NCBI GenBank assembly: GCA_964589975.1
Contig: CAZPVH010000003.1
Span: 5,608 to 69,607, forward strand
Source of the DNA: an uncultured Candidatus Saccharibacteria bacterium
GTDB taxonomy: Bacteria; Patescibacteriota; Minisyncoccia; Phycocordibacterales; CSBR16-119
Length of the DNA stretch: 64,000 bases
Direction: 5' to 3'
Shown here: one piece after another, positions 6,379-58,462 of the stretch
Layout: each line of letters begins with the position of its first letter
Position numbering within the stretch: the stretch's first letter is position 1
Translations under genes and position numbers: made by a program
The notes under the pieces: generated by a model
Database searches by the model: none
Seen by the model: only the letters and a program-made list of their open reading frames with translations
Told to the model about the DNA's origin: nothing

Positions 6379-7053
6379 TCACCTGGAAAGAAACCTCTCT
6401 AGCTTGTTCCGCGAATCAGCAAGAAACCCCAAGTATTTAGCACCTGTAATTTTCTCCGTATCGCTAATAATAAAGCCGGGGTTACCTTTAAAAATATTCC
6501 CGCCCCCAACAACCGATTCTTTCGCAAATCTATAATCCCCCGTAAATGATTTCCAAGTTCTATCTTTCATCCTAATCTTCGGTGAGAAAAAATAACCAAG
6601 CTTGTTGTGTGATGAGAACGCTAAAAGCCCGCCCGGCTTTAATTTTTTTGTCGCTTCCTGAAGAGCTTTGTCACGCATTTCTTTCAAATCGATATAGTCT
6701 ATTGAATTCATAGGAAACAGAACGACATCAAAACCCTGGTCCGGTAGAAATGAGAGGTCTGATGCATCACCTTCGCAGAATTCTAGGTCTCTGAATTTTT
6801 CCTGAGGAAAATTATTTTTTGCAATCTCGGTCAACTTTTTTGAGCGATCAATGCTTAAAACTTTATTCCCGTAAAGCAATAAATTTACAGGTACGCGGCC
6901 GGCCCCACCACCCAATACCAAGACGCTCTTCCCTTTTAAGTCATATCTATCGATCAGATATTTTTCCGGATTGTTCAGACTCTTTACTCGTGTCGTGTTC
7001 GCCGCGTATTTCGCGACAACTTGGTCAGACTCGTAAAGCTCTTCATTATTCAT
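6379..7053 (-). CDS. class I SAM-dependent methyltransferase
   Basis: VLVLGGGAGRV glycine-rich SAM-binding motif. Confidence 0.7.
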   Translation of the reverse strand: MNNEELYESDQVVAKYAANTTRVKSLNNPEKYLIDRYDLKGKSVLVLGGGAGRVPVNLLLYGNKVLSIDRSKKLTEIAKNNFPQEKFRDLEFCEGDASDLSFLPDQGFDVVLFPMNSIDYIDLKEMRDKALQEATKKLKPGGLLAFSSHNKLGYFFSPKIRMKDRTWKSFTGDYRFAKESVVGGGNIFKGNPGFIISDTEKITGAKYLGFLADSRNKLERFLSR

Positions 7054-15343: not shown

Positions 15344-17776
15344 ATGGCAAAGAAAAAATTGGATAATAAAAAGAAACCGGCAAAAGATACGCTGGGTAAA
15401 TCAGAAGTTCAAGAATTCAAAAAAATCTTGGGCGTCCACATAAGCGAAGAGACGCGAAATAGCATCGTCGCGATATCCTTTTTCGTGCTAGCCATACTCT
15501 TTATTCTCTCTGGATTCAACCTGGGCGGCGTCGCCGGCAGATTCATATATAAGAACTTGGTACATATATTAGGCGTTGGCTACATTCTCTTGCCGCTAGT
15601 CCTAATTCTTCTGGGCGCATCTTCTTACAAATCTCTCCGACCATCACTCGCCATAACCCATCTAATAAGCGGACTTCTATTCTTTCTCTCGGGTCTCGGA
15701 CTCATACATATAATAAAGGCCGACGCGGCCGGTGTTGTCGGCAAATTCACTTCTTGGCCGTTTGTAAAGCTTTTCGATGTGTACCTGGCTTTTATTTTGC
15801 TTCTGGCGGTCTTCGGTATTTCAATTATCATCATGTTCGACGCTCGCCCGAGTCTTTCTCGCTTCAAGCAAAGACTTAAAGCGCTCTTTGGTTCAAAGGA
15901 AGACGAATACTATGAGGAAGCCGATGAGGCCGACGAGCCAGAAGAGGGGCCGGCACCAGAGCCTCTACCTCTTCCTGAGGAATCAGAGCCGGAAGTTCAA
16001 CGAGAAGAGCCCCCAAAGGACGCGATGGCTTTTACCGCGGCCTGGAAGTCTACTGGCAAATATGTTCCCCCTCCCCTCTCGCTCCTTCGAAAGAATGATC
16101 AGAAAGCCGTAACAGGAGACATCAAAGCTAATTCGAACATCATCAAACGAACACTCGAGAATTTTGACATCGCTGTCGAGATGGACGAAGTCACAGTTGG
16201 ACCTACCGTGACTCGTTTTGCCCTGAAACCGGCTCAGGGTGTCAGACTTTCGCGAATTACCGCCCTTTCTAACGAGCTTCGCCTCGCGCTTGCCGCTCCG
16301 TCTATCCGTATCCAGGCCCCTATCCCAGGACAGAGTCTTGTTGGCATAGAAGTGCCGAATGTAAACAAAGCGCTCGTTGACCTCCGCAGCCTCCTCTCCA
16401 CCAAAGATTTCAAAGAAAGCTCGAAGCCTCTCCTTGTGGCGCTTGGCCGTAGCGTTTCCGGCAAAGCTGAGTATGGAAATATAGGCAAAATGCCGCACCT
16501 CTTGGTAGCCGGCGCGACTGGATCCGGTAAGTCGGTGACCGTTCACACCCTCATTACAAGTCTTATATACAGGAACGGCCCGGAGGATCTTCGTTTCATT
16601 ATGATCGACCCGAAGCGCGTCGAACTCACTCTATATAACGGCATCCCTCACCTCCTTACTCCGGTTATTACGAACCCAAAGAAGGCTATCCTCTCTCTCA
16701 AGTGGGCGGTCTCTGAAATGGAACGACGCTATGACATACTCGAGAACCATGCTGTCCGTGACATTGACTCATATCACAAGAAATTTAACGAGCAGAAAAA
16801 TCCCGATGATGCTAACGCGATGGAGCGTATGCCGTTTATATTGATCTTCATCGACGAACTTGCCGATATCATGCAGAGCTATCCACGGGAACTCGAGTCC
16901 GGTATCGTCCGCCTAGCGCAGATGTCCCGAGCCGTAGGTATTCACCTTACTCTCTCGACCCAGCGCCCATCAGTCAACGTCATCACCGGCCTCATCAAGG
17001 CAAACGTTCCGACGCGTCTCGCGCTCCAGGTCGCCAGCCAGATCGACTCCAGAACCATCCTCGACGCCGCTGGCGCAGAGAAACTCCTCGGAGCCGGAGA
17101 TATGCTCTTCGCTTCCGGCGAAATGGCCCAGCCGCAGCGTATCCAGGGAGCTTTTATTTCCGAAGACGAGGTCAAGGAAGTCGCCGGATACCTCAAGAAT
17201 CGCTACAAGAATGAGCTGGCTGATGACATCAACCTTTCCGAAGGCTCAATCAGCTCAGATAAAAGTATTTTTGACAGCCAAATAGACGACGGAGACAAAG
17301 ACGAGCTTTTTGCCGAGGCCAAAGCATTGGTAATCAAAGAAAAGAAAGCTTCAACCTCATATATCCAGCGCCGCCTAAAGATCGGTTATTCTCGCGCCGC
17401 CAGAATCCTCGACGAGCTTGAACAAGCGGGTGTTGTAGGTCCAGCCAATGGCGCCAAGCCACGCGATATCCTATCTGACGGAAACGAGGTCGCGGCCCCA
17501 AGACCGGCCGCTACGGCTGTCTTTGCGTCTGTTGCTCCAGAGCCTGCCCGTATTCACACAGTCACTAGAACGCTAGACACAGAAGACGAGGAAGACCTGA
17601 CGGACGATGTAATGGAAGATGCCGACGAAACCCCTTACGAAGAAATTCCGGTCGAAGATGAAGTTGGTGGTAACGAAATTGATGAAAGTTCAGAAATACT
17701 TCCAGAAGACAAGCCGCTTGGTCGGGAAGATGACGAGAATAGCGATAATTCGTATGACGAGAACGATAAATATTAA
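15344..17776 (+). CDS. ftsK: DNA translocase FtsK/SpoIIIE
   Basis: N-terminal TM segments, acidic linker, Walker A LLVAGATGSGKSV, FtsK motor and C-terminal gamma wHTH domain. Confidence 0.9.
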   Translation: MAKKKLDNKKKPAKDTLGKSEVQEFKKILGVHISEETRNSIVAISFFVLAILFILSGFNLGGVAGRFIYKNLVHILGVGYILLPLVLILLGASSYKSLRPSLAITHLISGLLFFLSGLGLIHIIKADAAGVVGKFTSWPFVKLFDVYLAFILLLAVFGISIIIMFDARPSLSRFKQRLKALFGSKEDEYYEEADEADEPEEGPAPEPLPLPEESEPEVQREEPPKDAMAFTAAWKSTGKYVPPPLSLLRKNDQKAVTGDIKANSNIIKRTLENFDIAVEMDEVTVGPTVTRFALKPAQGVRLSRITALSNELRLALAAPSIRIQAPIPGQSLVGIEVPNVNKALVDLRSLLSTKDFKESSKPLLVALGRSVSGKAEYGNIGKMPHLLVAGATGSGKSVTVHTLITSLIYRNGPEDLRFIMIDPKRVELTLYNGIPHLLTPVITNPKKAILSLKWAVSEMERRYDILENHAVRDIDSYHKKFNEQKNPDDANAMERMPFILIFIDELADIMQSYPRELESGIVRLAQMSRAVGIHLTLSTQRPSVNVITGLIKANVPTRLALQVASQIDSRTILDAAGAEKLLGAGDMLFASGEMAQPQRIQGAFISEDEVKEVAGYLKNRYKNELADDINLSEGSISSDKSIFDSQIDDGDKDELFAEAKALVIKEKKASTSYIQRRLKIGYSRAARILDELEQAGVVGPANGAKPRDILSDGNEVAAPRPAATAVFASVAPEPARIHTVTRTLDTEDEEDLTDDVMEDADETPYEEIPVEDEVGGNEIDESSEILPEDKPLGREDDENSDNSYDENDKY

Positions 17777-19822: not shown

Positions 19823-19874
19823 AATTTGATTATATCAAAGCTTTTGACGGTTAGCTGTTAGCTTCTAGTGGGAA

Positions 19875-19900
19875 AACGCCGCGCCGTAAGGCGCGGCGTT
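19875..19900 (-). terminator. intrinsic terminator following element A
   Basis: aacgccgcgccgtaaggcgcggcgtt perfect hairpin followed by a UUUUCCC tract on the minus strand. Confidence 0.65.
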
Positions 19901-19910
19901 TCATTCCCCT

Positions 19911-20001
19911 CTCCGCGAAGCAGAATATTTCTTTTTTGAGTCCGAGGACCTAGTGCGAAGACACGATCCCGCAGGACGAGAAAAAGAAATGTTCTGCGGA
20001 G
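19911..20001. repeat. conserved-core stem-loop element, copy A (core 19942-19975)
   Basis: Core CCGAGGACCTAGtgcgaagacaCGATCCCGCAGG inside an imperfect ~20-bp inverted repeat; it abuts the stop of the minus-strand RNase gene and precedes the hairpin terminator at 19875-19900. Confidence 0.7.
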
Positions 20002-21396
20002 CTAAAACTCCAGTTCTACTACCTGATTCTGCTCCGGCACGATAGCCGTAACGCCCAAATTATCGTGAAGTTTCTGCGCCAAGAACATTGAAACGCGTGG
20101 TTCACCCATGACCACAAATGCTTTTTTGAGCGTGTCTTTAGTGCTTTCGATGAATTTAACCAAGTGAAACGAATCTTTGTGTCCGGAGAATCCTTGGATC
20201 ATCACGACTTTCGCTCGAACATGCACGCGCTCGAACATAATCATAACCTGGTCTCGGCCTTCTTGGAGCATGCGTCCTAGAGTTCCCGGCACCTGATAGC
20301 CAGTGAGGAGGAGCGTCGCATTCGGATCCCCCAAATAATTCTTTTCATGATGAAGAATCCTTCCGCCAGAAGACATCCCAGAGCCAGCCATGATGATCTT
20401 TGGACCCGGAACTTTTAAAATATTTATTGACTCTTGAGTAATTTCCGTCTCCTTGAGCCCCGGGAAGCTAAAAATGTTGTCTCCCTGACTGATCTGCATC
20501 CGGACTGTTTCTTTAAGGAGATTTAGATGCCTTCTAAATACATCTGTTATACGAATTGCGAGCGGAGAATCAAGGAATATCTTTATTTGTGGAATCTGCT
20601 TCGATTCGACGAAATTATTGAGTTCGTAGAGAAATTCTTGGGTGCGTTCAAGTGAAAAGATCGGCACCATCAAAACGCCCTTCTTGTTATATGTTTCGAG
20701 TATGACTTTTTTCAAATTCTCTTCCCTCTCTGCGCGCTGCTCGTGATTTCTGTCGCCATAAACCGACTCCATGACAATATATTTGGCGTCGGTAATTTCT
20801 TCCGTATCAGCCAAAAGTGGCGACGGCGAGTTTCCAAGGTCCCCTGTAAAGACAATCTTCGAGCCATTGTATGTTATTTCAGCCATGACAGACCCGAGGA
20901 TATGTCCGGCGTCTTTGAAAAATACCGACAATGGCCCGAGGTGAAAATCCTCGTGATACTCATGCGTTTCCCACATATGATCAATCTTGGAGAGCACAGA
21001 TGTTCCGTACATTTCGCCGAGATGATACTTCGGCGCGGATTTCGAGTTTGCCAAAATATGCGCGGTGTCTGCAAGCATGACAGCCGTCAGATCGCGTGTA
21101 GCCGCGGTTCCGATAATTCTGCCCTTGAAGCCCTCATAAACAAGCTTAGGAATGCGGCCGATGTGATCTTCGTGAGCGTGCGTGACGATCAGTGCATCGA
21201 TATCTGCCGGATTATATGGGAATGGCTCCCAGTTATCGAATTCGGCCAGATGCTCACCCTGAATAAGGCCACAGTCCACAAGAAGACGAAACGGCTTCTC
21301 CCCCGATTCCGGCATCGTTTCGAGCAAAAAATTTGCGCCGGTCACCCAGCCCGCGCCGCCCGCAAAAGTAAGTTTTAATTTCTTAACGATGGTCAT
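20002..21396 (-). CDS. MBL-fold metallo-hydrolase, beta-CASP family ribonuclease (RNase J/CPSF-like)
   Basis: HxHxDH motif (VTHAHEDHIG), followed by beta-CASP-like and RNA-specificity regions. Confidence 0.8.
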   Translation of the reverse strand: MTIVKKLKLTFAGGAGWVTGANFLLETMPESGEKPFRLLVDCGLIQGEHLAEFDNWEPFPYNPADIDALIVTHAHEDHIGRIPKLVYEGFKGRIIGTAATRDLTAVMLADTAHILANSKSAPKYHLGEMYGTSVLSKIDHMWETHEYHEDFHLGPLSVFFKDAGHILGSVMAEITYNGSKIVFTGDLGNSPSPLLADTEEITDAKYIVMESVYGDRNHEQRAEREENLKKVILETYNKKGVLMVPIFSLERTQEFLYELNNFVESKQIPQIKIFLDSPLAIRITDVFRRHLNLLKETVRMQISQGDNIFSFPGLKETEITQESINILKVPGPKIIMAGSGMSSGGRILHHEKNYLGDPNATLLLTGYQVPGTLGRMLQEGRDQVMIMFERVHVRAKVVMIQGFSGHKDSFHLVKFIESTKDTLKKAFVVMGEPRVSMFLAQKLHDNLGVTAIVPEQNQVVELEF

Positions 21397-22817: not shown

Positions 22818-23318
22818 ATGAAGAAAATTTTTGCTCTCACGTCACTGTGTGTCCTTTTGGCCCACAGCGGCTTCTGTCAAAGCGGCATCAAGTATCCCGA
22901 CTGCAAGACTGGCGGGGCGGGCGGCTCGCTTATGGTATACGACGACAAGCTCGACGGGACGCTGGGCCATCATCCTTGGATGACCCTCCAAGAAGGCAGT
23001 TCCTGCGGCGAGGTCCTCATGGTCGTTGAGGGTGAGGTTGATTCCTGCGCGGTCTATACCTTGAACGATGTTGCCGGACGAACAGCAACGAACGGACGAA
23101 CCCTCCTCTGGGAAGGCAACGCTTACGACAAGGGCACGTTCATGACGCTCTTCCGAGGCATTGTGCCAAAGGACTATGTCCGCATCGAACAAGAAGTGAT
23201 GACGGACGGAATCTTCGGCGGGAAAAATCCGCCGAAAGCCATCCACCTCATCATCGGCACGGCCAAAGGAGAGTCGGTGATGGTCGTTTCCGCCTGCAAG
23301 TGCATGAGCGAAAACTAA
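22818..23318 (+). CDS. hypothetical secreted Cys-containing protein (GC-rich gene)
   Basis: Signal peptide MKKIFALTSLCVLLAHSGFCQSG; local GC content clearly above neighbours. Confidence 0.55.
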   Translation: MKKIFALTSLCVLLAHSGFCQSGIKYPDCKTGGAGGSLMVYDDKLDGTLGHHPWMTLQEGSSCGEVLMVVEGEVDSCAVYTLNDVAGRTATNGRTLLWEGNAYDKGTFMTLFRGIVPKDYVRIEQEVMTDGIFGGKNPPKAIHLIIGTAKGESVMVVSACKCMSEN

Positions 23319-23347
23319 GACAAGAGCGCTGTTCGAAAGAACGGCGC

Positions 23348-23399
23348 TCTTTTATATTTTTATAAACTTATCCATCACTTCCTTCTCTACTTCATCTCT
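23348..23399. repeat. direct repeat, copy 1: duplicated 3' end and terminator tail of the 909-aa ATPase gene
   Basis: 23362-23399 matches 24620-24657 at 37 of 38 positions, and the preceding T-tracts also match. On the minus strand it would encode ...RDEVEKEVMDKFIKI* versus the ATPase C-terminus ...RDEVEKEVMDKFMKI*. Confidence 0.7.
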
Positions 23400-23489
23400 T
23401 TGCCAGCCTCATTAATGAAGGTAGATTTAGTAATCATTGACAAATTACCAACATTGTGCTACCATATACGCAGACCAAAAACGAAACAC

Positions 23490-23975
23490 ATGAAAACCTT
23501 CACAACCATACTGTTGACAGTCTTCTGTCTCTTCACAAGTCGCGCCACGGCCCAAACGGGCTCGATCAGATCCCTCTTGGAAAAGAACGGTTTTGAGTGG
23601 CAATCAAGCCTTGCCCAACCAAGCGATTTCGACAACGAGAGCGACCTGGGCGCACAAACCGAGGTTACGAAACTGAAACGAGAAGAAGATGAGAAAGTGA
23701 CGACAACCGGCGTCCTGAGTTTAATCGATACGCTCAATTTCACACCGCTCAGCCTGAAAGAGTCACTTCAATACCGTGAGGACACCTACATACCCGACAT
23801 CATTGATGTTTATCACGAAAGAACGGTTGTGTTTTTCGGTTCAAGTGTTCAGGTTAGAGGGAAAACCTACTACCCAATACTACGTTGGCAGGAAGGAAGC
23901 AAGAAAGGAATAGTCACGATGACAGACAATCCTTTCTGCTGCAAAGAAGAGGTGGACATTGTAGTGAAACACTGA
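23490..23975 (+). CDS. hypothetical secreted protein
   Basis: Start chosen at the internal Met giving signal peptide MKTFTTILLTVFCLFTSRATAQ; the ORF track extends upstream to 23400. Confidence 0.5.
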   Translation: MKTFTTILLTVFCLFTSRATAQTGSIRSLLEKNGFEWQSSLAQPSDFDNESDLGAQTEVTKLKREEDEKVTTTGVLSLIDTLNFTPLSLKESLQYREDTYIPDIIDVYHERTVVFFGSSVQVRGKTYYPILRWQEGSKKGIVTMTDNPFCCKEEVDIVVKH

Positions 23976-24103
23976 AGAATGCGCGCCAGCCACGACAACG
24001 TGGCTGGCGTTTACTTTTTATCTATTGTTTTACACTTGCGTAAGCGGCCGGACTACACTACCATTGTAGTTATTAATAAGAGAAAGACGCTTTTTAAAAA
24101 TAT

Positions 24104-24559
24104 ATGAATACTAAAATCGTAGGGGGTCTATTGGCTCTAGTGCTAATTGTTCAAGTGGTGCTGGTCGGAGCAGGAACAAAGATGTCGGAAAAGATTAGCA
24201 GTATAAATGTTCAACAAGCTTCTATAATTTCTAAGGTTGATCAGGTGGCAGCGCTTGGCGCAAGCGGGGTCCTCAATCCTGGACCAACACCTGGAGGAAT
24301 TACAATCATAACCTATTATCTTTACAATAGGTGCACAGTTACAACCTATTCAGATGCTGGCACCCCTAGCACGTCTCAGGGCTATACGGTTAGTACTCCA
24401 AGCGGTCAGGGCTGTGACACATCTGGACCTCAATCTGCAACGGCAGGCACAGGCACAGGTATAACAAATAATATTGTTCCCCTTAGAGACGGCGGGGTAA
24501 GCATAAGAAATTCATCTGACATAGTAAGTACTGAAATAAAGTTTATTAAGTCACGTTAA
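24104..24559 (+). CDS. hypothetical membrane-anchored Thr/Ser/Gly-rich protein
   Basis: N-terminal TM/signal anchor MNTKIVGGLLALVLIVQVVLVGAG. Confidence 0.5.
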   Translation: MNTKIVGGLLALVLIVQVVLVGAGTKMSEKISSINVQQASIISKVDQVAALGASGVLNPGPTPGGITIITYYLYNRCTVTTYSDAGTPSTSQGYTVSTPSGQGCDTSGPQSATAGTGTGITNNIVPLRDGGVSIRNSSDIVSTEIKFIKSR

Positions 24560-24608: not shown

Positions 24609-24657
24609 TTTATATCTTCATAAACTTATCCATCACTTCCTTCTCTACCTCATCTCT
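24599..24657. repeat. direct repeat, copy 2: authentic 3' end of the ATPase gene
   Basis: Partner of 23348-23399; the two copies bracket a ~1.2-kb cassette containing the two small secreted-protein genes at 23490-24559. Confidence 0.7.
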
Positions 24658-27339
24658 CGGTCGTCCATACTTGAGGAATGAAAGTTCTTTGAGAGAGTCG
24701 ACAATATCTGGATTTCCTGCTGGTAAGTCTTGTGTACGAATATTGAATGGCTTAACTGGCGTACCGTCGACGAGCATGGACACATACGCATTACGGTTAT
24801 CTAGCTTCATGATGTCTTGAACGGTAAAGACTGGGTCCAAACGCTTCTGCAAAATCTCCGCATCTTCGGAACTAATACGGAATATTGCCATCGAACCAAC
24901 GTTACCGAGTACGGCATTTCGAATATCGTCCGAGAGTTGTGACAAATACTGGTGGGCAACATTAAGACCGAGCTTGTATTTTCGTGCTTCAGAGAGAATC
25001 GAAGAAATAGATGGGGTGGTGAAATTCTGAAACTCGTCTATGTAGAGATAAAACGGTGGAAAATTTGCGCCGTGCGAGTCGGCACGAGAAAGTGCTGCCA
25101 TTTGGATCTTTCCTACCAGAATGAGACCTAAGAGGTTTGCATTGATATCTCCAAGTCTTCCCTTCGAAAGGTTTACCAGTAAGATTTTCTTGTTATCAAT
25201 AATCTCGCGGAAATTAAAGCTTGATTTCTCCTGAGCGATAATTGGACGCATAATTTCGTTAGAAATAAATGTGTCGAATTTGGACGTAATATACGGAACG
25301 AAGTTCTCTAGTCCTTGCTCACCTGTAGTCGCTTCAGCGGTTTTCCAGAATTGCTTGATGATTGGGTTCGTACAACGTTCTAGCTTCATATCACGGAATT
25401 TCTTGTCAGAGAGAACACGACCAATTTCAAGAATAGTATTACCTGTGGACGGATCAGACATCACAAGTCCGGCAGAATTCTTGAAATACTGCTCGAAAAG
25501 TGGTCCACCGGCGGTCTTCATATCAAAGAGCTGACTAAAAATACCGAGGAGTTCGTTAATCACAAGCGTCTTCTGTTCCGGACGCTCTGGATCAAACTCG
25601 AGCATATTGAGGCCCATTGGCCGCGCAGTTGAGGCTGGATCGAAATAAATGACGTCATCAATGCGATGTTTTGGGATATAAGAAAGGATTTTCTGGATGT
25701 CGGATCCGTGTGGATCTATGTAGCAAACACCGTCACCCCGCTCGATATCCTGACGAATCATGTTCATCATAATACCGGTCTTACCAGTTCCAGTCTGGCC
25801 GATAACATAAAAATGCCTCATGCGATCGAGCTCCTGGAGGTAAATATCGGTATCAACTCCGCGATGCGTGTTGATACCGATTTGAACGCCGCCACCAACC
25901 ATATTGAGCGGCGCAGACGCGGAACCTGCTTTTGACTCTTTGAGCTCTGGTGAAGACGCAAGACCTACCGGGAAATGCACGAGCGTCGAGAGTTCTTTGA
26001 AATTGAGCGGCAAGGCCGAAGCTTCGGTCGGCAGGCGGAATGAAAATGAATGGAGAAACTGATCCAAATGCTTGTCGTCGACCTTTTTAAACTTGAGACT
26101 GTTTGAGCTTGGCTTCTCGAACTGAGAGAACGCCGATTCAATGTTTGCAATTATCTCGCCTGTTCGAATGGCGCTATCTGACGAAGCCACGACACGGATA
26201 TTCGCCAGCATGATGGTCGACTTGATCTTCTCGGTAATATTTTCGACAGCTTTGTCGTCGATATCCTTTTCTTCCTTCTCTTCTGTCTTCTTGGGTCCTT
26301 TCCAAAGCATTGTTCCAAAGCTCTTTAGCTCTTTCTTTACGTCGCCAAACTCATCCAATATATGCTTAAGTTTTTCGCCTTTTTTCACCTTATCAAGATA
26401 TCCGGAGAATTTCTTAATGTATCTGTCCCCCGCCGGCATGATGACGAACTGGAGCGCCGCGCCTTCTTTCGTTTTATCAAGCTTCGAGAAGGCGTTCAGG
26501 ATCGTATTCATCGGATCATGATCAAACTCATCGTGAGTTTTGAGTGGAAACACCTCATGATCGCCAAACTCTGCCGATGCCGCCATAATCGAGCCGCCTG
26601 AGTTAAAGACATTGTAATCATTCGTAACTTCGGTGATCTTTGCATTCTTGTAAAATGACAGTATCTGTTTTTCAAGCAGAGTTTTTCGATCTTTTGGAAT
26701 GGAGACATAAAAAACGATTTCCGGTGAATCATGTGATACGGCAATCTCAATTGTGAAATATTGCTTATATTTATTATTCTCCCCATTCGATATGGTCTGC
26801 ATACCGGCATAAAACTGTTCCATAGCGGAAAGAAATTCTTTGAAAGTTTTTTCTTTCTCTTCTGAAGCTGGCAGAGTTACTTCAAAAAGCGCGAGGTTGA
26901 GAGATTTCCATTCTGGCGAACTCTCGGAGAGCCCGGGGACTTGATGAGAAGTGTGGAGGAACTGAATCAAGAATCTGTGAAAGTCGTCCTCAAGATGCGG
27001 ATTATGCATACGGGAAACGATATCCATGGTGTTTTTTATACCGTGCTCTAGGAGTAGGCCATAAAGCTCTTCGATTTGACTATCATGTTCTTCTGGCTTG
27101 AGGGCCAGGACCATGCTTTCGGCCTCTTTCTCTGGCACACGGTAGCTTTCATGAAGCACTTCGGCTGAGTCGGCTTTTTTGTACGCGGAAAGCGTCTCAT
27201 GAGTCACTTCTTCGCGAGATTTTTCAAGCTTAGCACCAGCGTTCACTCTCTCTTGTTCGGCAACTTTCTCGCGCAAATAAGCGAGCTCCTCTTCAGGAGT
27301 CTTGAACGCGCCTTTTTCCATGATCTGAGCCCCTTCCAT
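24610..27339 (-). CDS. large P-loop ATPase of the FtsK/HerA/TraG(VirD4) superfamily with ~430-aa N-terminal domain of unknown function
   Basis: Walker A GQTGTGKTG followed by DPHGS; Walker B LYIDEFQNF; downstream AHQYLSQL motif as in type-IV coupling/HerA-like ATPases; no TM segments. Confidence 0.7.
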   Translation of the reverse strand: MEGAQIMEKGAFKTPEEELAYLREKVAEQERVNAGAKLEKSREEVTHETLSAYKKADSAEVLHESYRVPEKEAESMVLALKPEEHDSQIEELYGLLLEHGIKNTMDIVSRMHNPHLEDDFHRFLIQFLHTSHQVPGLSESSPEWKSLNLALFEVTLPASEEKEKTFKEFLSAMEQFYAGMQTISNGENNKYKQYFTIEIAVSHDSPEIVFYVSIPKDRKTLLEKQILSFYKNAKITEVTNDYNVFNSGGSIMAASAEFGDHEVFPLKTHDEFDHDPMNTILNAFSKLDKTKEGAALQFVIMPAGDRYIKKFSGYLDKVKKGEKLKHILDEFGDVKKELKSFGTMLWKGPKKTEEKEEKDIDDKAVENITEKIKSTIMLANIRVVASSDSAIRTGEIIANIESAFSQFEKPSSNSLKFKKVDDKHLDQFLHSFSFRLPTEASALPLNFKELSTLVHFPVGLASSPELKESKAGSASAPLNMVGGGVQIGINTHRGVDTDIYLQELDRMRHFYVIGQTGTGKTGIMMNMIRQDIERGDGVCYIDPHGSDIQKILSYIPKHRIDDVIYFDPASTARPMGLNMLEFDPERPEQKTLVINELLGIFSQLFDMKTAGGPLFEQYFKNSAGLVMSDPSTGNTILEIGRVLSDKKFRDMKLERCTNPIIKQFWKTAEATTGEQGLENFVPYITSKFDTFISNEIMRPIIAQEKSSFNFREIIDNKKILLVNLSKGRLGDINANLLGLILVGKIQMAALSRADSHGANFPPFYLYIDEFQNFTTPSISSILSEARKYKLGLNVAHQYLSQLSDDIRNAVLGNVGSMAIFRISSEDAEILQKRLDPVFTVQDIMKLDNRNAYVSMLVDGTPVKPFNIRTQDLPAGNPDIVDSLKELSFLKYGRPRDEVEKEVMDKFMKI

Positions 27340-27340
27340 C

Positions 27341-27452
27341 CCGTTAGTGACAGGTCGCGGTCGTCATTCCGCCACCAGCAATTAAATTTATAATCTTGGT
27401 CATAGTTTCTTACATATGCATTTTACCCGCACGCGACCGCGGTCACTAACGG
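27341..27452. promoter_or_regulatory. long imperfect inverted repeat flanking a 68-nt AT-rich spacer, immediately upstream of the 909-aa ATPase start codon
   Basis: Arm 1 at 27341-27363 (ccgttagtgacaggtcgcggtcg) and arm 2 at 27432-27452 (cgcgaccgcggtcactaacgg), which contains the 10-bp palindrome GACCGCGGTC. Arm 1 begins 2 nt after the start codon on the minus strand. Confidence 0.6.
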
Positions 27453-27558
27453 GATCCATATGGATAATATTGTAACATGAAAGAAAAAGACCCTTGTTGC
27501 CAAGCAAAGCGAAAGAGCCGGCAGAACCGGCTCTTAAGTAAACTTCTTACACAGGCCT

Positions 27559-29189: not shown

Positions 29190-29244
29190 ACGGCTGATTA
29201 TAGCGGAAAAGGGCTAAAAACAAAGTGGCTTAAATATCAAGGAA

Positions 29245-29274
29245 AATGCCCCTCCGCAAGGAGGGGCATTTTCT
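29245..29274 (-). terminator. intrinsic terminator following element B (downstream of rpsR)
   Basis: aaaatgcccctccgcaaggaggggcatttt perfect hairpin with flanking U-tract. Confidence 0.65.
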
Positions 29275-29290
29275 TAAATCATCTTTTGGT

Positions 29291-29370
29291 GGAGCAACAT
29301 GCCCATTTTAGAATCCGAGGACCTAGCGTAGCGATCCCGCAGGATTATAAAATGGGCAAATTGCGGAGCG
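29291..29370. repeat. conserved-core stem-loop element, copy B (core 29315-29343)
   Basis: Core CCGAGGACCTAGcgtagCGATCCCGCAGG inside an inverted repeat; it lies between the rpsR stop (29375) and the hairpin terminator at 29245-29274. Confidence 0.7.
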
Positions 29371-29374
29371 TTCG

Positions 29375-29575
29375 CTATTCAGCGACGAATGGAAGGAGTC
29401 CCATGATCCTGGCGCGTTTGACGGCGAGAGAGACTTTCTTCTGATTCTTTGAAGAGAGCTTGGTCTTTCGCTTACCCATGAGGCGTGCAGAAGCATCCAA
29501 GAACTGCTTCAGAATCGCAGTGTCCTTGTAGTCGATATGCTTTATATTGTTCGATGAGAAATAATCTTGCTGCAT
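29375..29575 (-). CDS. rpsR: 30S ribosomal protein S18
   Basis: S18 signature; rpsF-ssb-rpsR context. Confidence 0.85.
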   Translation of the reverse strand: MQQDYFSSNNIKHIDYKDTAILKQFLDASARLMGKRKTKLSSKNQKKVSLAVKRARIMGLLPFVAE

Positions 29576-37984: not shown

Positions 37985-38569
37985 CTACATGAGCTGTGTT
38001 GCGGCAAGTGATTTATTGAGCTCTTTGATAATAGATTTTTTCGTCGAAGTTAGCCGAGCGAGCGTCTCAGTGGTGAACGGACTCTTCGCAAGTCCGCCGA
38101 GCGCGTCGGCGTCGCCCCAATACCCGAGCCCTGAAAGAATTTTTAGAACAAGGAGAGCCTCAATACTCTCCATTTCATCCTGCTTCGGATGAGTATTCGA
38201 GGTGAATTCAAAAGCTGCTACCAACTCGTCGAAAAGGTGCTCGTGCGGTTCTTCTTCCGGCGCAAGCTTGGCGATTAGCTGGAGTCCGCGGATACGCGAA
38301 CTTGTCGAGAGGCTCTTTTTAGAATTCAAATCATGAATCGGCCTGGCGGAAACAAGCCGCCAGAAAGTCTTGCCTTTCACAAGGCTCGCATCGATGTATT
38401 TGAAATCCTGAACGAAGTAACGGAGGCGGGATTCCATTTTCCGGATTCCCATGGCTTTCGCGCGAATAACGCCAAAGTCTTTTGTAAACAGATGAAATGT
38501 CTTATCCGCCTCCCCGGTGTTTCGAGTCGACATCACAAACGCTTCAGTGTGATAAATAGTGTGAGACAT
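37985..38569 (-). CDS. recO: DNA repair protein RecO
   Basis: N-terminal OB-fold region resembles RecO (TEAFVMSTRNTGEADKTFHLFTKDFGVIRAKAMG). Confidence 0.65.
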   Translation of the reverse strand: MSHTIYHTEAFVMSTRNTGEADKTFHLFTKDFGVIRAKAMGIRKMESRLRYFVQDFKYIDASLVKGKTFWRLVSARPIHDLNSKKSLSTSSRIRGLQLIAKLAPEEEPHEHLFDELVAAFEFTSNTHPKQDEMESIEALLVLKILSGLGYWGDADALGGLAKSPFTTETLARLTSTKKSIIKELNKSLAATQLM

Positions 38570-41500
38570 TATTTCTCGATTTTTGTTTCCTCACCTCCCC
38601 ATTTAATTTCTTTGATTCCGGCGGTTTTCTTTAGCTCGTCTTCAAAGCCGCTAATTATATCCTTCTGGCTTTCTGGAATGGTTAGATTTACGAGATCGCT
38701 TGGTGACAAATTCTGATCCTTTCGCATACCTTGTACGCCTCGCAAGAACTTTCGGAAATCACCCTCACGCCTCAACTCTGGTGTAATCTCATGATTAAGC
38801 AATGTGGTTGTAGTCAAATTTCCATCGAAAATAACTTTTCTAACATTTAATTCCTCACTTACAACTACTGCCGTACCCCCGGAGAGAGAAATTACAGAAC
38901 TTATGCTTTCAAGCGGTTGACTAACTTCAATTCCTGCTTTTTTGCGCTCTTGTAAACCATTTGTGACTACTACTCTGGCGTCCCTCATCTCATCGATAAC
39001 TCTTTGATCAACTTTTTTACTTTCGGGCCATTTCGCAAGATGTACACTTTCGACATCATTCGACAATTTGAGCTTCTGCCAAATGTCCTCTGCTGCAAAA
39101 GGCGCGAATGGAGCCATAAGTTTGGCGACATCAACAAGTACCGCGTAAAGCGTGCGCTTTGCATCAGCATCTCCATCCTTGAGCCTGTCTCGAGAACGTC
39201 GTAGATACCAAGTTGATAGATCGTCGATAAAATCTCGAAGTGCTCTGACAGGTTCAAGAAGCTTGTAGTTATCGAGATTTTCCGTCATCGAGTTCGTAAG
39301 CTCTTTCAGCCGCTCCATAATCCAGATATCGAGCACATTGGAACTCTTCGGAACTTCGGAAGTCTCCAGGCTCTTGTCGCGGTAAAGCTCATAAAAGGCC
39401 AAAACGTTATAGAAAAGATTAAAAACTTTATTTCGAAGCTCAGCCACGGTCTTCTCGTCAAAGTTCTTCGAATCTCCCGGCTGGTTCACCGAATACATCC
39501 AGAGGCGAAGCGTATCAACGCCATATTTGTCCATCATTTCCCAAGGATTGACGATGTTTCCGATAGACTTCGACATCTTCTTTCCTTTCGAGTCCAGGAT
39601 GTGCCCCAAGCAGATACAGTTTTTGTAAGCCTGGCCTTTGCCCATGAGGACGCCAACGGCGTGGAGCGTATAGAACCATCCACGAGTTTGGTCGACGGCT
39701 TCAGAAATGAAATCTGCTGGATAACCCGCACCATCAACATATTCTTTATTCTCAAACGGATAGTGGTGTTGAGCAAAAGGCATGGCGCCGGAATCGAACC
39801 AGACATCCATAACTTCTTTTACTCGACGAAATTCCTTTCCATTTTTAACGAGCACGACGTCGTCGATAAATGGACGATGAAGATCAAATTCCTTTTTCGT
39901 GCGAGTGTCTACATATACTGGAAACACTTCCCCGTTTTCGATTTCATGGAAAAGATGCTCCGCGGCATAGTCGTTGCCGAAGCCGCGCAACAGTTTGATT
40001 CCCATTTCATCTGTACCCTGATGAGCAAAACAAACAATAGTCTTGCCAGCATGTTTTTCAATTATATCCTCGAGGAAATCCTTGACCCTGACCTGCAGGT
40101 CTGCCCAGCTCTCGCCTGTGCCTCCACGCTTGAAAACAAATCTCTCATCGGGAGTCATTGCCTTATAGGCGTCGCGCTCAGCTTTGATGCTTGGGTCATG
40201 CTGAGTCTTTTCTTCCCAATTACCACTGCTGATTTCGGCAAGGCGCTCATCCGTGATCATTTCCTTACCGGACAATTTCAAATACGGCTCAGCAGTTTGT
40301 CTGGCACGGAGAATTGGCGAACAATAGACAACGTCAATATCATGGTCGGTAAGCTTCTTGGCCGTTTCTTTTGCCTGCTTTTGTCCGAGTTCAGTCAATG
40401 GATGAGCTTCGCGAGCACTCGAAGAAACCAGGCCAACATTGGCATCTGACTGTCCGTGGCGAACAAAAATTATTTTAGTTATGGATTGCTTGGTATGTTT
40501 CTTGAGTTCCTCGACGCTTCCGACAACCCACTTCTCACCATCTTCGGCTACCCAAACCGGAAGAGGCGTGCCCCAATAACGCTCACGAGAAATAGCCCAG
40601 TCTTTGATTTCGCGTAGCCATTCGCCAAAACGACCTTCTTTGATATGAGACGGTTCCCAGTTAATTTTTTCGTTTTCTTTCACCAGCTCGTCACGAAGCT
40701 CGGACATACGGATGTACCAAGAATCTCGCGCATAATATATGAGCGGAGTTTTACATCGCCAGCAGTGCGGATATGTGTGTTCGTAGTTTTTCTTTCCAAA
40801 AAATAGTCCACGTGCGGTAAGGTCGTTTATAACATCGACGGCAAGTGTTGGTTTGCCGTTTTCGTCTTTCTCCATTGCAAATCGTCCAGAGAAAAAGGAA
40901 GTTTCAGGAAGAAACTTTCCATCAACGCCGACAACGTGTTCTTTCGGAAGACCAACTTTCGTCCCAAGCTCGAAGTCATCCTGTCCGTACATGGGCGCAA
41001 TGTGCACAATTCCTGTTCCGTCTTCGGTGGTGACGAAGTCGGCTGAGTAAACTTTATGAGATTTATCGTTTGGTTTGATGAAGTCGTAAAGGGGCTCATA
41101 TGAAAGACCGACAAGATCTGAACCTTTCACTTCCCCAATAACTTCATAACCATCTTTTAGAGCCTCAATTCGACTCTTGGCAATGATTAGAATCTCTTCT
41201 CCAACCTTGGCCTTTACATAATCAATCTTTCCGCCAACTGCCAACGCGACATTTCCAGGCAGCGTCCAAGGTGTAGTAGTCCAAGCAAGAACATAAGTGT
41301 TCTCTTCCCCTAGAACTTTAAACTTCACGAATATCGAAAGATCTTTTACATCTTCATACCCCTGCGCAAGCTCATGCGACGCAAGTGGTGTTCCGCAACG
41401 TGAGCACCATGGCACGATTCTATAATCTTTATAAAGTAGTCCACGTTCATTTACTTTTGCCAAAACATTCCAAAGAGACTCGATGTATGAATTGTCGAAT

Positions 41501-41952
41501 GTGAAATATGCATTCTTCTTGTCTACCCAGTAGCCGATACGGTCAGTAAAGTCTTCCCAGTCCTTGATGTATTGAAAAACGGATTCCTTGCACTCCTTAT
41601 TAAACTTCTCAATTCCGTATTCTTCGATAGCTTTTTTCGAGTTAAGTCCTAGTTTCTTTTCAATCTGAAGTTCCACCGGGAGTCCGTGAGTATCCCAACC
41701 GCCCTGACGACGCACATGAAAGCCTTGCATAGTTTTATAGCGTGGGATCACGTCCTTGAAAGCCCGAGCTTCCAAGTGATGTAGTGCTGGTTTCGCGTTC
41801 GCTGTCGGAGGTCCTTCGAAAAAGACGAATTCACCAGAAGGGCTTTCCTTTTGGAGGGTTTTATCAAAAATCTTATTGTCCTGCCAAAATTTTAGGACTT
41901 CTTCTTCCTTCCGAGCCGTGTCGGATTTTAGTTCCGGTTCCTTTTCCATCAT
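38569..41952 (-). CDS. ileS: isoleucine--tRNA ligase carrying an inserted histidine-phosphatase (PGM-like) domain
   Basis: IleRS hallmarks (GWDTHGLPVE, WTTTPWTLPGN, ISRERYWGTP, VWFDSG, KMSKS) plus ~200-aa insert with RHG and HQG motifs. Confidence 0.9.
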   Translation of the reverse strand: MMEKEPELKSDTARKEEEVLKFWQDNKIFDKTLQKESPSGEFVFFEGPPTANAKPALHHLEARAFKDVIPRYKTMQGFHVRRQGGWDTHGLPVELQIEKKLGLNSKKAIEEYGIEKFNKECKESVFQYIKDWEDFTDRIGYWVDKKNAYFTFDNSYIESLWNVLAKVNERGLLYKDYRIVPWCSRCGTPLASHELAQGYEDVKDLSIFVKFKVLGEENTYVLAWTTTPWTLPGNVALAVGGKIDYVKAKVGEEILIIAKSRIEALKDGYEVIGEVKGSDLVGLSYEPLYDFIKPNDKSHKVYSADFVTTEDGTGIVHIAPMYGQDDFELGTKVGLPKEHVVGVDGKFLPETSFFSGRFAMEKDENGKPTLAVDVINDLTARGLFFGKKNYEHTYPHCWRCKTPLIYYARDSWYIRMSELRDELVKENEKINWEPSHIKEGRFGEWLREIKDWAISRERYWGTPLPVWVAEDGEKWVVGSVEELKKHTKQSITKIIFVRHGQSDANVGLVSSSAREAHPLTELGQKQAKETAKKLTDHDIDVVYCSPILRARQTAEPYLKLSGKEMITDERLAEISSGNWEEKTQHDPSIKAERDAYKAMTPDERFVFKRGGTGESWADLQVRVKDFLEDIIEKHAGKTIVCFAHQGTDEMGIKLLRGFGNDYAAEHLFHEIENGEVFPVYVDTRTKKEFDLHRPFIDDVVLVKNGKEFRRVKEVMDVWFDSGAMPFAQHHYPFENKEYVDGAGYPADFISEAVDQTRGWFYTLHAVGVLMGKGQAYKNCICLGHILDSKGKKMSKSIGNIVNPWEMMDKYGVDTLRLWMYSVNQPGDSKNFDEKTVAELRNKVFNLFYNVLAFYELYRDKSLETSEVPKSSNVLDIWIMERLKELTNSMTENLDNYKLLEPVRALRDFIDDLSTWYLRRSRDRLKDGDADAKRTLYAVLVDVAKLMAPFAPFAAEDIWQKLKLSNDVESVHLAKWPESKKVDQRVIDEMRDARVVVTNGLQERKKAGIEVSQPLESISSVISLSGGTAVVVSEELNVRKVIFDGNLTTTTLLNHEITPELRREGDFRKFLRGVQGMRKDQNLSPSDLVNLTIPESQKDIISGFEDELKKTAGIKEIKWGGEETKIEK

Positions 41953-54760: not shown

Positions 54761-55444
54761 ATGGCGCTATCAGACAAAAGGATATTGGAAGAAATGAAGA
54801 AGGGCGATATCATCATCGACCCGTTTATCAGAAAGAATCTCGCGACTTCGAGCTATGACCTCACGCTCGGCGAATTCTATTTCCGCGAGCAGCCACCAAA
54901 GTACAACCACAATCTCTTTAACATCTGGAACCAAGAGCACGTTGAACATGTCTGGGGCAAGAAGGCCTTTAAGGCCGAAAAAGCGAGCGAGGTATTCAAG
55001 AAATATAACTTCAATTACGTCGGCATAGACCGGAACGACAGAGTGATCCTGATCCGACCTGGAGAAACGATTTTGGCCCACACAAACGAGTTTATCGGTG
55101 GCAAGAATCATATCACAACCATGATGAAAGCCCGCTCATCCATGGGCCGAAGCTTCATAGAGGTTTGTAAGTGCGCAGGCTGGGGCGATGTAGGCTATGT
55201 GAACCGATGGACAATGGAAATTACGAACAATTCAAAAAATTACGCCATCCCCCTCGTTGTCGGCCGCCGCATTGCCCAACTCGTTTTCTTCGAGACCGGA
55301 CCGATCCTTGATCGCGACTATACCAAGGCCGGAAAATACTCGACTTCAACTGATCTAAAGGTCTTGAAGAAAAAATGGAAACCAAGCGATATGATCCCAC
55401 GGCTTTACAAAGACGCGAATGGAGAGAAGAAGAAAAAGAAATGA
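54761..55444 (+). CDS. dcd: dCTP deaminase family protein
   Basis: Dcd/dUTPase-like jelly-roll motifs (RSSMGRSFIEV...GW.G....E). Confidence 0.75.
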   Translation: MALSDKRILEEMKKGDIIIDPFIRKNLATSSYDLTLGEFYFREQPPKYNHNLFNIWNQEHVEHVWGKKAFKAEKASEVFKKYNFNYVGIDRNDRVILIRPGETILAHTNEFIGGKNHITTMMKARSSMGRSFIEVCKCAGWGDVGYVNRWTMEITNNSKNYAIPLVVGRRIAQLVFFETGPILDRDYTKAGKYSTSTDLKVLKKKWKPSDMIPRLYKDANGEKKKKK

Positions 55445-55932
55445 TTTCCATTATTTCTTCCATTCAGATGAGCGACCGAGGCCTCGGCTACGAGAACGAC
55501 CTCCTTTTCAAGATCCCGGAAGACCTCAAGCGCTTCCGCGATCTGACCATAGGACATCCGGTCATCATGGGTCGACGAACCTGGGAATCCCTACCACTAA
55601 AATTCCGCCCGCTCCCCGGAAGAACGAATATAGTCATTACATCAAAAGACTTAAGTGCTAGCCCGGAAGTCATCGTCTGCAAAAACGTTGAAGACGCCGT
55701 GAGTGAAGCTAAAAAGCTCGATAAAGATTTCGCCATCATCGGCGGCGCCATGGTTTTCAATAAGACGCTTCCCTATACCAACAGGCTCCTTCTAACTGAA
55801 ATAGAGGGTAACAAGACATCCGACACCTTTTTCCCGGAATTCAAAAATGATTTCGTGCTAGAAAATTCCGCCGGACCATTTGAGACAGCTGAAGGAATAA
55901 AATACTGGTTCAACGACTACAAAAGAAAATAA
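55441..55932 (+). CDS. folA: dihydrofolate reductase
   Basis: Start moved to Met at 55441 (ATGA overlap with dcd); DHFR motifs IMGRRTWESLP, IIGG. Confidence 0.85.
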   Translation: MISIISSIQMSDRGLGYENDLLFKIPEDLKRFRDLTIGHPVIMGRRTWESLPLKFRPLPGRTNIVITSKDLSASPEVIVCKNVEDAVSEAKKLDKDFAIIGGAMVFNKTLPYTNRLLLTEIEGNKTSDTFFPEFKNDFVLENSAGPFETAEGIKYWFNDYKRK

Positions 55933-55956
55933 TTCCCTTTCTCTCCCTCTCCTCAG

Positions 55957-56043
55957 CAAAAGAAAAAACACATTTCCGAATCCCGAGGACCTAGTGACGT
56001 TGTCACGATCCCGCAGGGTGAGGAAATGTGTTTTTTCTTTTGC
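55957..56043. repeat. conserved-core stem-loop element, copy C (core 55983-56017)
   Basis: Core CCGAGGACCTAGtgacgttgtcaCGATCCCGCAGG inside a perfect 21-bp inverted repeat (gcaaaagaaaaaacacatttc / gaaatgtgttttttcttttgc); between convergent dfrA and rplK stops. Confidence 0.75.
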
Positions 56044-56046
56044 TTC

Positions 56047-56478
56047 CTACTTCACCTCTATGCCCATCGATCGGCATTGCCCTTCAACAATCTTCATGGC
56101 GGCTTCGATAGTGTTTGCTGAGAGATCCTTCATCTTTAGAGTCGCGATTTCTTCAACCTTGGCCCTACTAATCGTTCCAGCCTTCTTTGTGGCGTTTTTT
56201 GATGATCCCTTGTCGATCCCAGCGGCCTTGAGGATTAAGGGGCCAGTAAGTGGGGTTTTGGTATCGAATTCGTAGGTCCTATCCTCGAATACACGAAGTT
56301 TGACTGAAACCTTGCCCTGACCGATCATATCCTTTGTTCGATCGTTGAATTCTGTAACGAAAACACCAATAGGAATACCAGCCTGACCGATGGTAGGACC
56401 AATAGGCGGAGCTGGCGTTGCGCGCCCGGCTTCGATCTGCATTTTAACGTTTTTTACTACTTTCTTTTTGCTGGCCAT
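56047..56478 (-). CDS. rplK: 50S ribosomal protein L11
   Basis: L11 N-terminal PPIGPTIGQ motif. Confidence 0.95.
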   Translation of the reverse strand: MASKKKVVKNVKMQIEAGRATPAPPIGPTIGQAGIPIGVFVTEFNDRTKDMIGQGKVSVKLRVFEDRTYEFDTKTPLTGPLILKAAGIDKGSSKNATKKAGTISRAKVEEIATLKMKDLSANTIEAAMKIVEGQCRSMGIEVK

Positions 56479-58281: not shown

Positions 58282-58340
58282 GAGCGTAGGTGTTGTTTGT
58301 CTTTAATCTACTCCTCCCCCGCTGCTTTTGCAAGCATGAG

Positions 58341-58364
58341 AAAATCCGCTTCACAGCGGATTTT
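58341..58364 (-). terminator. intrinsic terminator following element D (downstream of fusA)
   Basis: aaaatccgcttcacagcggatttt hairpin followed by a UUUUCUC tract on the minus strand. Confidence 0.65.
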
Positions 58365-58377
58365 CCTCTTTCTCTAA

Positions 58378-58462
58378 GCGGAGCAAAATCTGAATTTTCT
58401 GAACCCGAGGACCTAGCAAAGCGATCCCGCAGCGGTGAAGAAAATTCAGATTTTGCGGAGCG
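58378..58462. repeat. conserved-core stem-loop element, copy D (core 58405-58432)
   Basis: Core CCGAGGACCTAGcaaagCGATCCCGCAG inside a 17-bp inverted repeat; it lies between the fusA stop (58467) and the hairpin terminator at 58341-58364. Confidence 0.7.

Follow-up and report, generated by a model that had tools for sequence, protein, structure and literature searches.

Stop-codon-proximal hairpin elements with a shared core and exchangeable tips in Saccharibacteria

Why are long hairpins built around one shared core found at the ends of housekeeping genes in a Saccharibacteria genome? The question arises from a 64-kb stretch of DNA (called here the window, which means the whole stretch analyzed), whose host is a rare Saccharibacteria lineage. 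An earlier note, made from the letters alone, described four stem-loops of ~85 nt, here copies A to D, with a shared core in one orientation. It took a conserved loop with co-varying stems as a sign of a functional structured RNA or a protein-binding hairpin and called the family the opposite of a MITE. Streamlined, tiny Saccharibacteria genomes keep and exchange such long hairpins at the ends of essential genes (rplK, fusA, and rpsR). If the hairpins are selfish, miniature foldback elements thrive in CPR genomes, with stop-codon-targeted insertion and a modular, nestable cargo. If they are functional, they represent a new 3'-end signal in a phylum with almost no characterized RNA biology.

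The core and the hairpins around it

The pattern search for CCGAGGACCTAG-N(5-11)-CGATCCCGCAG returned exactly four matches in the 64-kb window, all on the plus strand, in agreement with the four-copy family described earlier. The same four sites were returned when the centre was allowed to vary as N(3-15). The pattern was observed in none of 100 dinucleotide shuffles of the window (0/100), and the chance expectation is no match. Relaxed searches with half-cores revealed no credible extra copy in the window. A covariance model built from 16 copies, the kind of search that the earlier note had proposed, matched the same four sites of the window and no degenerate extras. Copies A to D are also the longest and strongest four inverted repeats in the window; their arms measure 23-34 nt and are 83-91% complementary. 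They fold far more stably than shuffled sequences on either strand (z -2.9 to -8.8). The coordinates of the elements, their cores, and the neighboring features are listed in Table 1.

Table 1. Hairpin elements, adjoining genes (Pfam assignments), and downstream features in the window.
Feature	Coordinates	Strand	Remarks
Copy A, whole element	19915..20002	-	core 19942-19974; distal GCTTCGC 19915-19921
Copy B, whole element	29289..29369	-	after rpsR TAG (29375-29377); core 29315-29342
Copy C, whole element	55955..56044	-	after rplK TAG (56047-56049); core 55983-56016
Copy D, whole element	58378..58461	-	after fusA TAA (58467-58469); core 58405-58432
GC-rich terminator-like hairpin after A	19874..19901	-	12-bp perfect arms, short T run
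Terminator-like hairpin after B	29242..29273	-	14 pairs, then T-rich tail
GC hairpin after D	58340..58365		A and T runs flanking; looks bidirectional
Purine-only tract directly after C	55935..55954	-	GAGGAGAGGGAGAGAAAGGG (sense strand)
Purine-rich tract after A	19895-19914		similar to the tract after C
Purine-rich tract after D	58358-58377		similar to the tract after C
beta-CASP RNase	20002-21396	-
S18	29375-29575	-
L11	56047-56478	-
EF-G	58467-60629	-
DHFR	55375-55932	+

In the gene sense, the order is a TAA or TAG stop codon, a gap of 0-5 nt, the heptamer GCUYCGC, and a 17-23 bp A/U-rich stem that starts from GCA(A)AA. The first stem arm is followed by a junction, CC-UGC-GGGAUCG, a tip, C-UA-GGUCCU-C-GG, another junction, the returning stem, and a second GCUYCGC. 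The tip is either a mini-hairpin of 4-5 bp or a triloop with a closing C-G or U-A pair. The core of the earlier note, ..CC-UGC-GGGAUCG-(triloop or mini-hairpin)-C-UA-GGUCCU-C-GG.., is named type 1a here. A small central hairpin had been proposed for C and A. Folding supports it in copy C (UGAC/GUCA) and only in part in copy A.

The two heptamers resemble direct repeats, and their outer GCs pair with each other across a 3x3 loop (UCC/UCC when read in the gene sense, GGA/GGA when read antisense). The last GC of the proximal heptamer pairs with the first GC of the distal one. Seventeen elements bounded by GCTYCGC were located with one rule. Most copies carry GCTYCGC on both sides, with stems starting as AAAA/TTTT. 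Copies A, B, and D have GCTCCGC on the gene-proximal side, GCTYCRC on the distal side, and stems of the form GCA(A) ... (T)TGC. Copy D has GCTCCGC at both sides and an 18-bp perfect stem. Copy C has a 23-bp perfect stem and degenerate heptamers, and L002 also lacks the heptamers. The short termini GC-NNN-GC-AAAA / TTTT-GC-NNN-GC are conserved and the remaining part of the arms varies. The flanking repeats had been said to differ completely in sequence and to stay complementary. Pairing is indeed kept as the sequence changes, but the difference is not complete, as the heptamers and the GCA(A)/(T)TGC ends are common to the copies.

Comparison with Rfam 15 at the gathering threshold gave no match in the window or in 15 related loci, consistent with the earlier remark that the core belongs to no recognized class. 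At E<=10, copy A matched only through its terminator hairpin, plus noise. In the full-text literature, no description was found of the core or of such hairpin, palindrome, or ncRNA motifs in Saccharibacteria or Patescibacteria. A tRNA or tmRNA relic was suspected from a CGATCCC motif and an SmpB-like ORF near L010, and was rejected with ARAGORN, which detected neither type of gene in the window or in eight related loci. Phage or plasmid origin was also rejected, as blastn searches of 50,697 phage records and 72,556 plasmid records yielded only 25-nt low-complexity matches or none. The IMG/VR match, L012, is a single chance match. It is a separate observation that the window has no Rfam match at the gathering threshold despite its rpsL-rpsG-fusA, nusG-rplK, and rpsF-ssb-rpsR clusters; neither ribosomal-protein leaders nor tRNA genes were recognized in it.

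Placement at the ends of genes

Genes in the window are mostly on the minus strand, and the elements read in that sense. The distance from the stop codon to the element is 5 nt in B and D, 1-2 nt in C, and 0 nt in A, where the G of TAG is the first base of the element: the sense-strand GCTCCGC (19996-20002) shares 1 nt with the TAG stop of the beta-CASP RNase gene. The spacing in most related elements is 1 nt. In this group of Saccharibacteria, all eight copies have a co-oriented stop codon 0-5 nt before the element, so the earlier claim that the elements directly follow stop codons in the orientation of the gene is borne out. Three of the four copies in a second clade, described below, share the orientation of the upstream gene, and the gene orientation is common to all unambiguous copies. 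According to GC skew, the gene-sense strand is suggested to be the leading strand. At nine independent loci, the stop codons beside the elements are all TAA or TAG, and TGA accounts for 23% of stops in these genomes (p about 0.1). This avoidance of TGA next to the elements is weak evidence for constraint.

The GC hairpins downstream of A, B, and D are separate from the elements themselves. The terminator scan flagged the hairpin after B on the minus strand and the hairpin after D only on the plus strand, and the one after A was recorded only as an inverted repeat. The earlier note's distinction between the elements and separate downstream hairpins is supported. The elements resemble intrinsic terminators in being hairpins downstream of genes, but their stems are long and A/U-rich, their loops span 38-44 nt, and the flank on the 3' side is rich in purines and is not a U tract. 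The terminator scan flagged only the separate hairpins. Copy C, which has the convergent DHFR stop 22 nt away, had been considered a possible bidirectional terminator. That proposal is not supported: the stem of copy C is followed by no T run on either strand, and the scan cannot score its 44-nt loop.

The purine-rich tracts listed in Table 1 have counterparts after most related elements. The mean purine fraction in the 20 nt past the element is 0.75, versus 0.50 in other post-stop regions, and the tract is often Shine-Dalgarno-like (GGAG, GAGG). The first base past the distal heptamer is usually T (about 13/16 elements listed). The 3 nt past the element are exactly the stop codon in L001, L028, and L023, agree with it at 2/3 positions in about seven more, and are unlike it in A, B, and the fusA elements of L024 and L030. 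A target-site duplication may be present, but the sequences are no more than suggestive of it. The heptamers themselves were rejected as a simple target-site duplication, because the same sequence is found at unrelated sites and the empty fusA sites have no heptamer.

Distribution, exchange, and constraint among relatives

About 25 related loci were compared. Among 185,579 species genomes, the exact core was found at only four loci (L001-L004), which belong to three MAGs of "uncultured Candidatus Saccharibacteria". Each of these three MAGs has one or two exact-core copies, and L024 has two copies with diverged cores. The EF-G of the window was found elsewhere on one Logan contig only. The metagenome scan added four further true hairpins (L006, L007, L009, and L010). 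They are assigned to another Saccharibacteria clade, clade 2, because a flanking protein is <50% identical to Saccharibacteria homologues. In clade 2, the same core lies within a different hairpin family with the arms GTTGTCAA...TTGACNAAC. The clade-2 hairpin is very long, and both its distinct arms, GUUGUCAA.../...UUGACNAACA, and its 3' junction, CAAUCACAG, are conserved. The core is an independent module, seen in two hairpin families. A core of 26 nt or more is identical across deeply separated Saccharibacteria lineages, an invariance that is, outside the window, partly forced by exact-pattern searching. Four other core matches, all without a hairpin, were set aside as probable chance matches: L008, L012, and the GC-rich contigs L005 and L011, which have a 25-nt core match (covariance score 19 bits, E about 0.1).

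Copy D is absent after fusA at seven related loci, which represent six relatives: L021 (EF-G 95% identical), L014 and L022 (93%), L015 (89%), L019 (87%), L028, and L031. At the empty fusA sites, the terminator directly follows the stop codon. The fusA site is occupied by a type-2 element in L030 and by a nested element with a diverged type-1 core in L024. The stem of copy D shares 72-78% identity with those of two other elements, L001 (downstream of an ABC ATPase gene) and L003 (downstream of uvrD).

The position of copy C is an ancestral "rplK slot". A hairpin is present there in 11/11 strains examined, and it is flanked by heptamers, intact or degenerate, in 10/11. The exception, L031, has a hairpin without heptamers that looks decayed. 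The 5' arms at the slot (GCAnnnACAUnnnnnAAAAAG) are recognizably homologous and diverge fast, with compensation. The tips are not uniform. L022 has an empty tip, the window has type 1a, and L023 and L030 have type 1b. Type 2 is observed in L014, L024, L029, L015, and L017, and L028 has type 3, a cargo about 110 nt long. In type 2, two hairpins meet in a three-way junction; their loops, UUGUAAAC and YUUCAYAA, are conserved, and their stems covary. L015 and L017 have identical EF-G but differ in these stems, which covary. A UGC/UC internal loop common to cargo types 1 and 2 was considered and rejected, as it is present in L014 but not in L024, L029, or L015. As a separate observation, the two type-2 hairpins (L014, L015, L017, L024, L029, and L030) contain the same loop word, in one hairpin as UUGUAAAC and in the other, on the opposite strand, as the complement of CUUCACAAG.

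Several comparisons document exchange. Between the window and L023 or L030 at rplK, both 22-nt arms are 100% identical and the core differs at about 14/45 positions; therefore, the core was swapped or converted independently of the stem, the reverse of an invariant core on a drifting stem. Between the near-identical strains L014 and L022, the whole sequence between the heptamers is replaced. The type-2 element at rplK of L024 hardly differs from the fusA element of L030 in its heptamers, stem, or cargo. Two-tier hairpins with diverged type-1 cores are found at the fusA site of L024 (8016-8161) and at its doxX site. At the latter, tandem heptamer-footed elements (17337-17468 and 17487-17647) lie between doxX(+) and yceI(-). 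The earlier label "opposite of a MITE" does not fit these data, in which short termini are conserved, elements are present or absent among close relatives, the same element occurs at different loci, and elements are nested. With respect to the second L024 tandem element (17487-17647), it was also noticed that its heptamers are inverted (GCTCCGC...GCGGAGC), that its cargo, a different one of 130 nt, reuses the core words CUGCGGGAG and GGUCCUUGCGAG, and that it overlaps the TAG stop of yceI just as copy A overlaps the RNase stop.

Copy B has an ortholog after rpsR in L004 (MAG contig CAZHCS010000002.1, EF-G 93% identical). The whole element aligns between the two, with the same core and a C-G to G-C exchange at one stem pair, while the downstream DNA cannot be aligned. 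The better conservation of the rpsR copy than of its flank across species suggests constraint. In the alignment of 16 copies, changes on both sides of a pair were observed in the helix below the loop (columns 22-60 and 23-59) and in the tip pair, and the covariation score exceeded those of all 500 shuffles and of slid controls. Compensatory changes in the outer stem, which the earlier note had proposed to look for, are present, as in the rpsR orthologs. In contrast, the 6-bp core helix GGGAUC/GGUCCU has no pair changed on both sides, and types 1b, 1c, and 1d lose pairs in it.

Long quasi-palindromes are kept perfect by intrastrand template switching. Because template switching can maintain DNA palindromes, the complementarity of the arms alone does not imply selection at the RNA level, and a conserved loop plus a covarying stem in a DNA palindrome is insufficient evidence for a structured RNA. 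The equation of the invariant core with a functional RNA is not supported, in view of the diverged core on identical arms in L023 and L030, other diverged cores, and the uncompensated inner helix.

The strands give no uniform signal. In the gene sense, GGGAUC/GGUCCU pairs at 6/6 positions with two G.U pairs; on the other strand, 4/6 are paired, with A.C mismatches. In the type 1a core, three G.U pairs of the gene sense correspond to A.C mismatches on the other strand. Whole 1a elements show no consistent energy difference between strands. In 9/9 non-1a elements, the antisense strand folds better, by 2-15 kcal/mol. The choice of strand from G.U versus A.C was abandoned as contradictory, since the 1a core points to the gene sense and the nine others to the antisense strand.

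Mobile foldback elements and the alternatives

Copy-number gain, presence and absence, identical elements at non-orthologous sites, nesting, and tip exchange were all observed. On balance we lean towards the reading that copies A to D are non-autonomous foldback elements of a family specific to Saccharibacteria, whose tip is modular and which are transcribed together with the gene as hairpins of the 3'-UTR. The type 1a core is one of several interchangeable cargos, and it is the module now proliferating in this lineage. Whole elements are copied into new sites close to stop codons, and insertion may target the TAR of the stop codon. Hairpins and their tips are exchanged between lineages, probably by gene conversion or re-insertion, and an element can lie within the tip of another. 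The complementarity of the arms may be kept either by a need for the folded form or by the correction of quasi-palindromes through template switching, and the core may be the site recognized, in the folded state, by a protein that mobilizes or maintains the elements. Because the elements are placed after the stop codon and before the terminator, in the orientation of the gene, they are expected to be co-transcribed and to add a very stable hairpin to the 3'-UTR. For the host, this hairpin is probably tolerated, or it may be a mildly useful barrier to 3' exonucleases.

Some observations weigh against mobility. The fixed orientation and the tight spacing from the stop codon are not predicted by random insertion, and they could reflect selection at the RNA level. 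A scan of 27 window proteins revealed no transposase or recombinase, the copy at rpsR is conserved, and the core is identical in deep lineages. Selfish repeats are, moreover, unexpected in genomes of about 1 Mb. To our knowledge, these elements have no autonomous relative.

The placement would be accounted for by a cis-acting 3'-UTR RNA that sets the stability or processing of the mRNA 3' end, its core being bound or cleaved by a protein such as RNase III, a different RNase, or an RNA chaperone. In such an RNA the stem need only pair, and hence would drift with compensation, and the core would offer an internal loop, the 6-bp helix with two G.U pairs, and a UA bulge. The co-oriented stop in all eight copies and in three of the four of clade 2, the better pairing of the core helix in the gene sense, the compensated changes below the loop and at the tip, the retention of the element beside a lost flank at rpsR, and the Shine-Dalgarno-like tract are consistent with it. 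Still, the inner helix is never compensated and is broken in types 1b, 1c, and 1d, at the rplK slot the core is missing in one strain and has an unrelated cargo in its place in others, and copy D is dispensable in close relatives. The better antisense folding of every non-1a element, together with the inconsistent strand preference of 1a, also disagrees with a transcript-level role. We regard this explanation as possible, if unlikely. A reading that is less likely again assumes that the elements are functional and not junk, as parts of an undescribed CPR system recognizing folded nucleic acid. The apical motif CC-UGC-GGGAUCG...C-UA-GGUCCU-C-GG and the GC-NNN-GC feet would direct one of two outcomes: hairpin cassettes would be installed and exchanged precisely, and in one orientation, at the stops of housekeeping genes, or a protein specific to Saccharibacteria would bind a new kind of RNA signal at the 3' end.

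The antisense folding of the non-1a elements would fit an attC-like single-stranded DNA recombination site, in which the folded "bottom" strand would be the substrate of a recombinase, GC-NNN-GC the crossover, and the apical part the variable terminal structure. Such a site would explain the cassette-like exchange at fixed slots after ORFs, including the replacement between the heptamers of L014 and L022, and the location immediately 3' of stops. The elements are also imperfect palindromes of 65-163 nt with variable sequence, conserved structure, very different terminal structures, and an unpaired 3x3 bubble near the base. However, they have no RYYYAAC/GTTRRRY boxes, their heptamers are direct and not inverted repeats, their neighbors are core housekeeping genes in conserved synteny and not cassettes, no integrase was seen in the scan of 27 window proteins, and no heptamer is present at the empty fusA sites. 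An attC-like function would be very improbable. Most improbable is an insulator against antisense transcription, in which a C/U-rich, G-poor antisense tract (a Rho site) and a pause hairpin would stop read-in. The sense purine tract is an antisense pyrimidine tract adjoining the hairpin, cargo types 2 and 3 fold better antisense, and the elements mark the ends of genes, frequently with convergent neighbors (copy C, L002, and L009). The idea is purely inferential; it explains neither the conserved core nor the mobility, and A, B, and D precede same-strand genes that have their own terminators.

In behavior, the closest counterparts of the elements are other small palindromic repeats. REPIN/REP sequences, mobilized by RAYT transposases, are likewise short, dispersed, intergenic, and transcribed hairpin repeats in which arm mutations are compensated, and movement as a folded single strand is thought to occur. 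REPs have a GTAG or CGTC tag and conserved arms, whereas the elements here have a GCTYCGC foot, variable arms, and a conserved centre. Their position is also locked to stop codons, and no RAYT gene was seen in the window. Correia elements (NEMIS) of Neisseria and ERIC of enterobacteria, 100-150 bp long, are likewise palindromic, co-transcribed, and present or absent between strains. Once transcribed, they form long hairpins that influence how the mRNA is processed and how stable it is, and they have a central protein-binding module (IHF in Correia). Correia elements have conserved 26-bp terminal inverted repeats, a clear TA duplication, and both insertion orientations. The elements described here differ from them in short termini, hypervariable stems, fixed orientation, stop-abutting position, and interchangeable apical cargos.

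Integron attC sites share the imperfect palindrome after an ORF stop, a conserved structure with varying sequence and length, the variable terminal structure, and the preferential folding of one strand. They are defined by R''(RYYYAAC) and R'(GTTRRRY) boxes, unlike the GCTYCGCAAAA...TTTTGCTYCGC ends here, which have no AAC/GTT boxes, and the elements are accompanied by housekeeping genes, without an integrase or a cassette array. Mitochondrial hairpin elements and GC clusters are likewise small selfish hairpins in compact genomes, intergenic or 3' of genes, with no known autonomous partner. Their hosts and sequences are different, and they have neither a conserved apical module nor a stop-codon rule. 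The distinctive features of the Saccharibacteria elements are the locking to stop codons, the fixed orientation, the GC-NNN-GC feet, the hypervariable stems, the modular and nestable tip, and the purine-rich 3' tract. In practice, the elements can be used as strain-level markers, and they are a likely cause of assembly breaks in MAGs.

Other repeats and genes were observed in the window and its relatives. A second hairpin family, (G)CCCCCACACCYACTTTTTGATGG-GCTYCGCCAWGCGCCTTYGGCG-CGATCAAAAAGTAGGTGTGRGGG, is found in L014 (8869-8938, 14180-14247, and 15597-15656) and L022 (about 6575-6639). Its copies closely precede rpsL, secE, and another ORF, the loop again contains GCTYCGC, and the family may be promoter-associated. 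A conserved inverted repeat of 14-16 nt, ATCCCGTTAGTGAC...GTCACTAACGGGAT, surrounds about 85-95 nt of variable DNA in the window (27338-27455), in L014 (1227-1348), and in L004 (2847-2957). It could be a regulatory site or a further element. In the window, this repeat is at the 5' end of a TraG/VirD4-like gene for a 909-aa protein (24610-27339, minus strand), which shows weak matches to TrwB_AAD_bind and TraG-D_C, domains of type IV secretion coupling proteins. The gene adjoins three small plus-strand ORFs without a Pfam match (22818-24559). An isoleucyl-tRNA synthetase-like protein of 1127 aa (38569-41952, minus strand) contains a complete His_Phos_1 (histidine phosphatase) domain inserted at residues 494-657.
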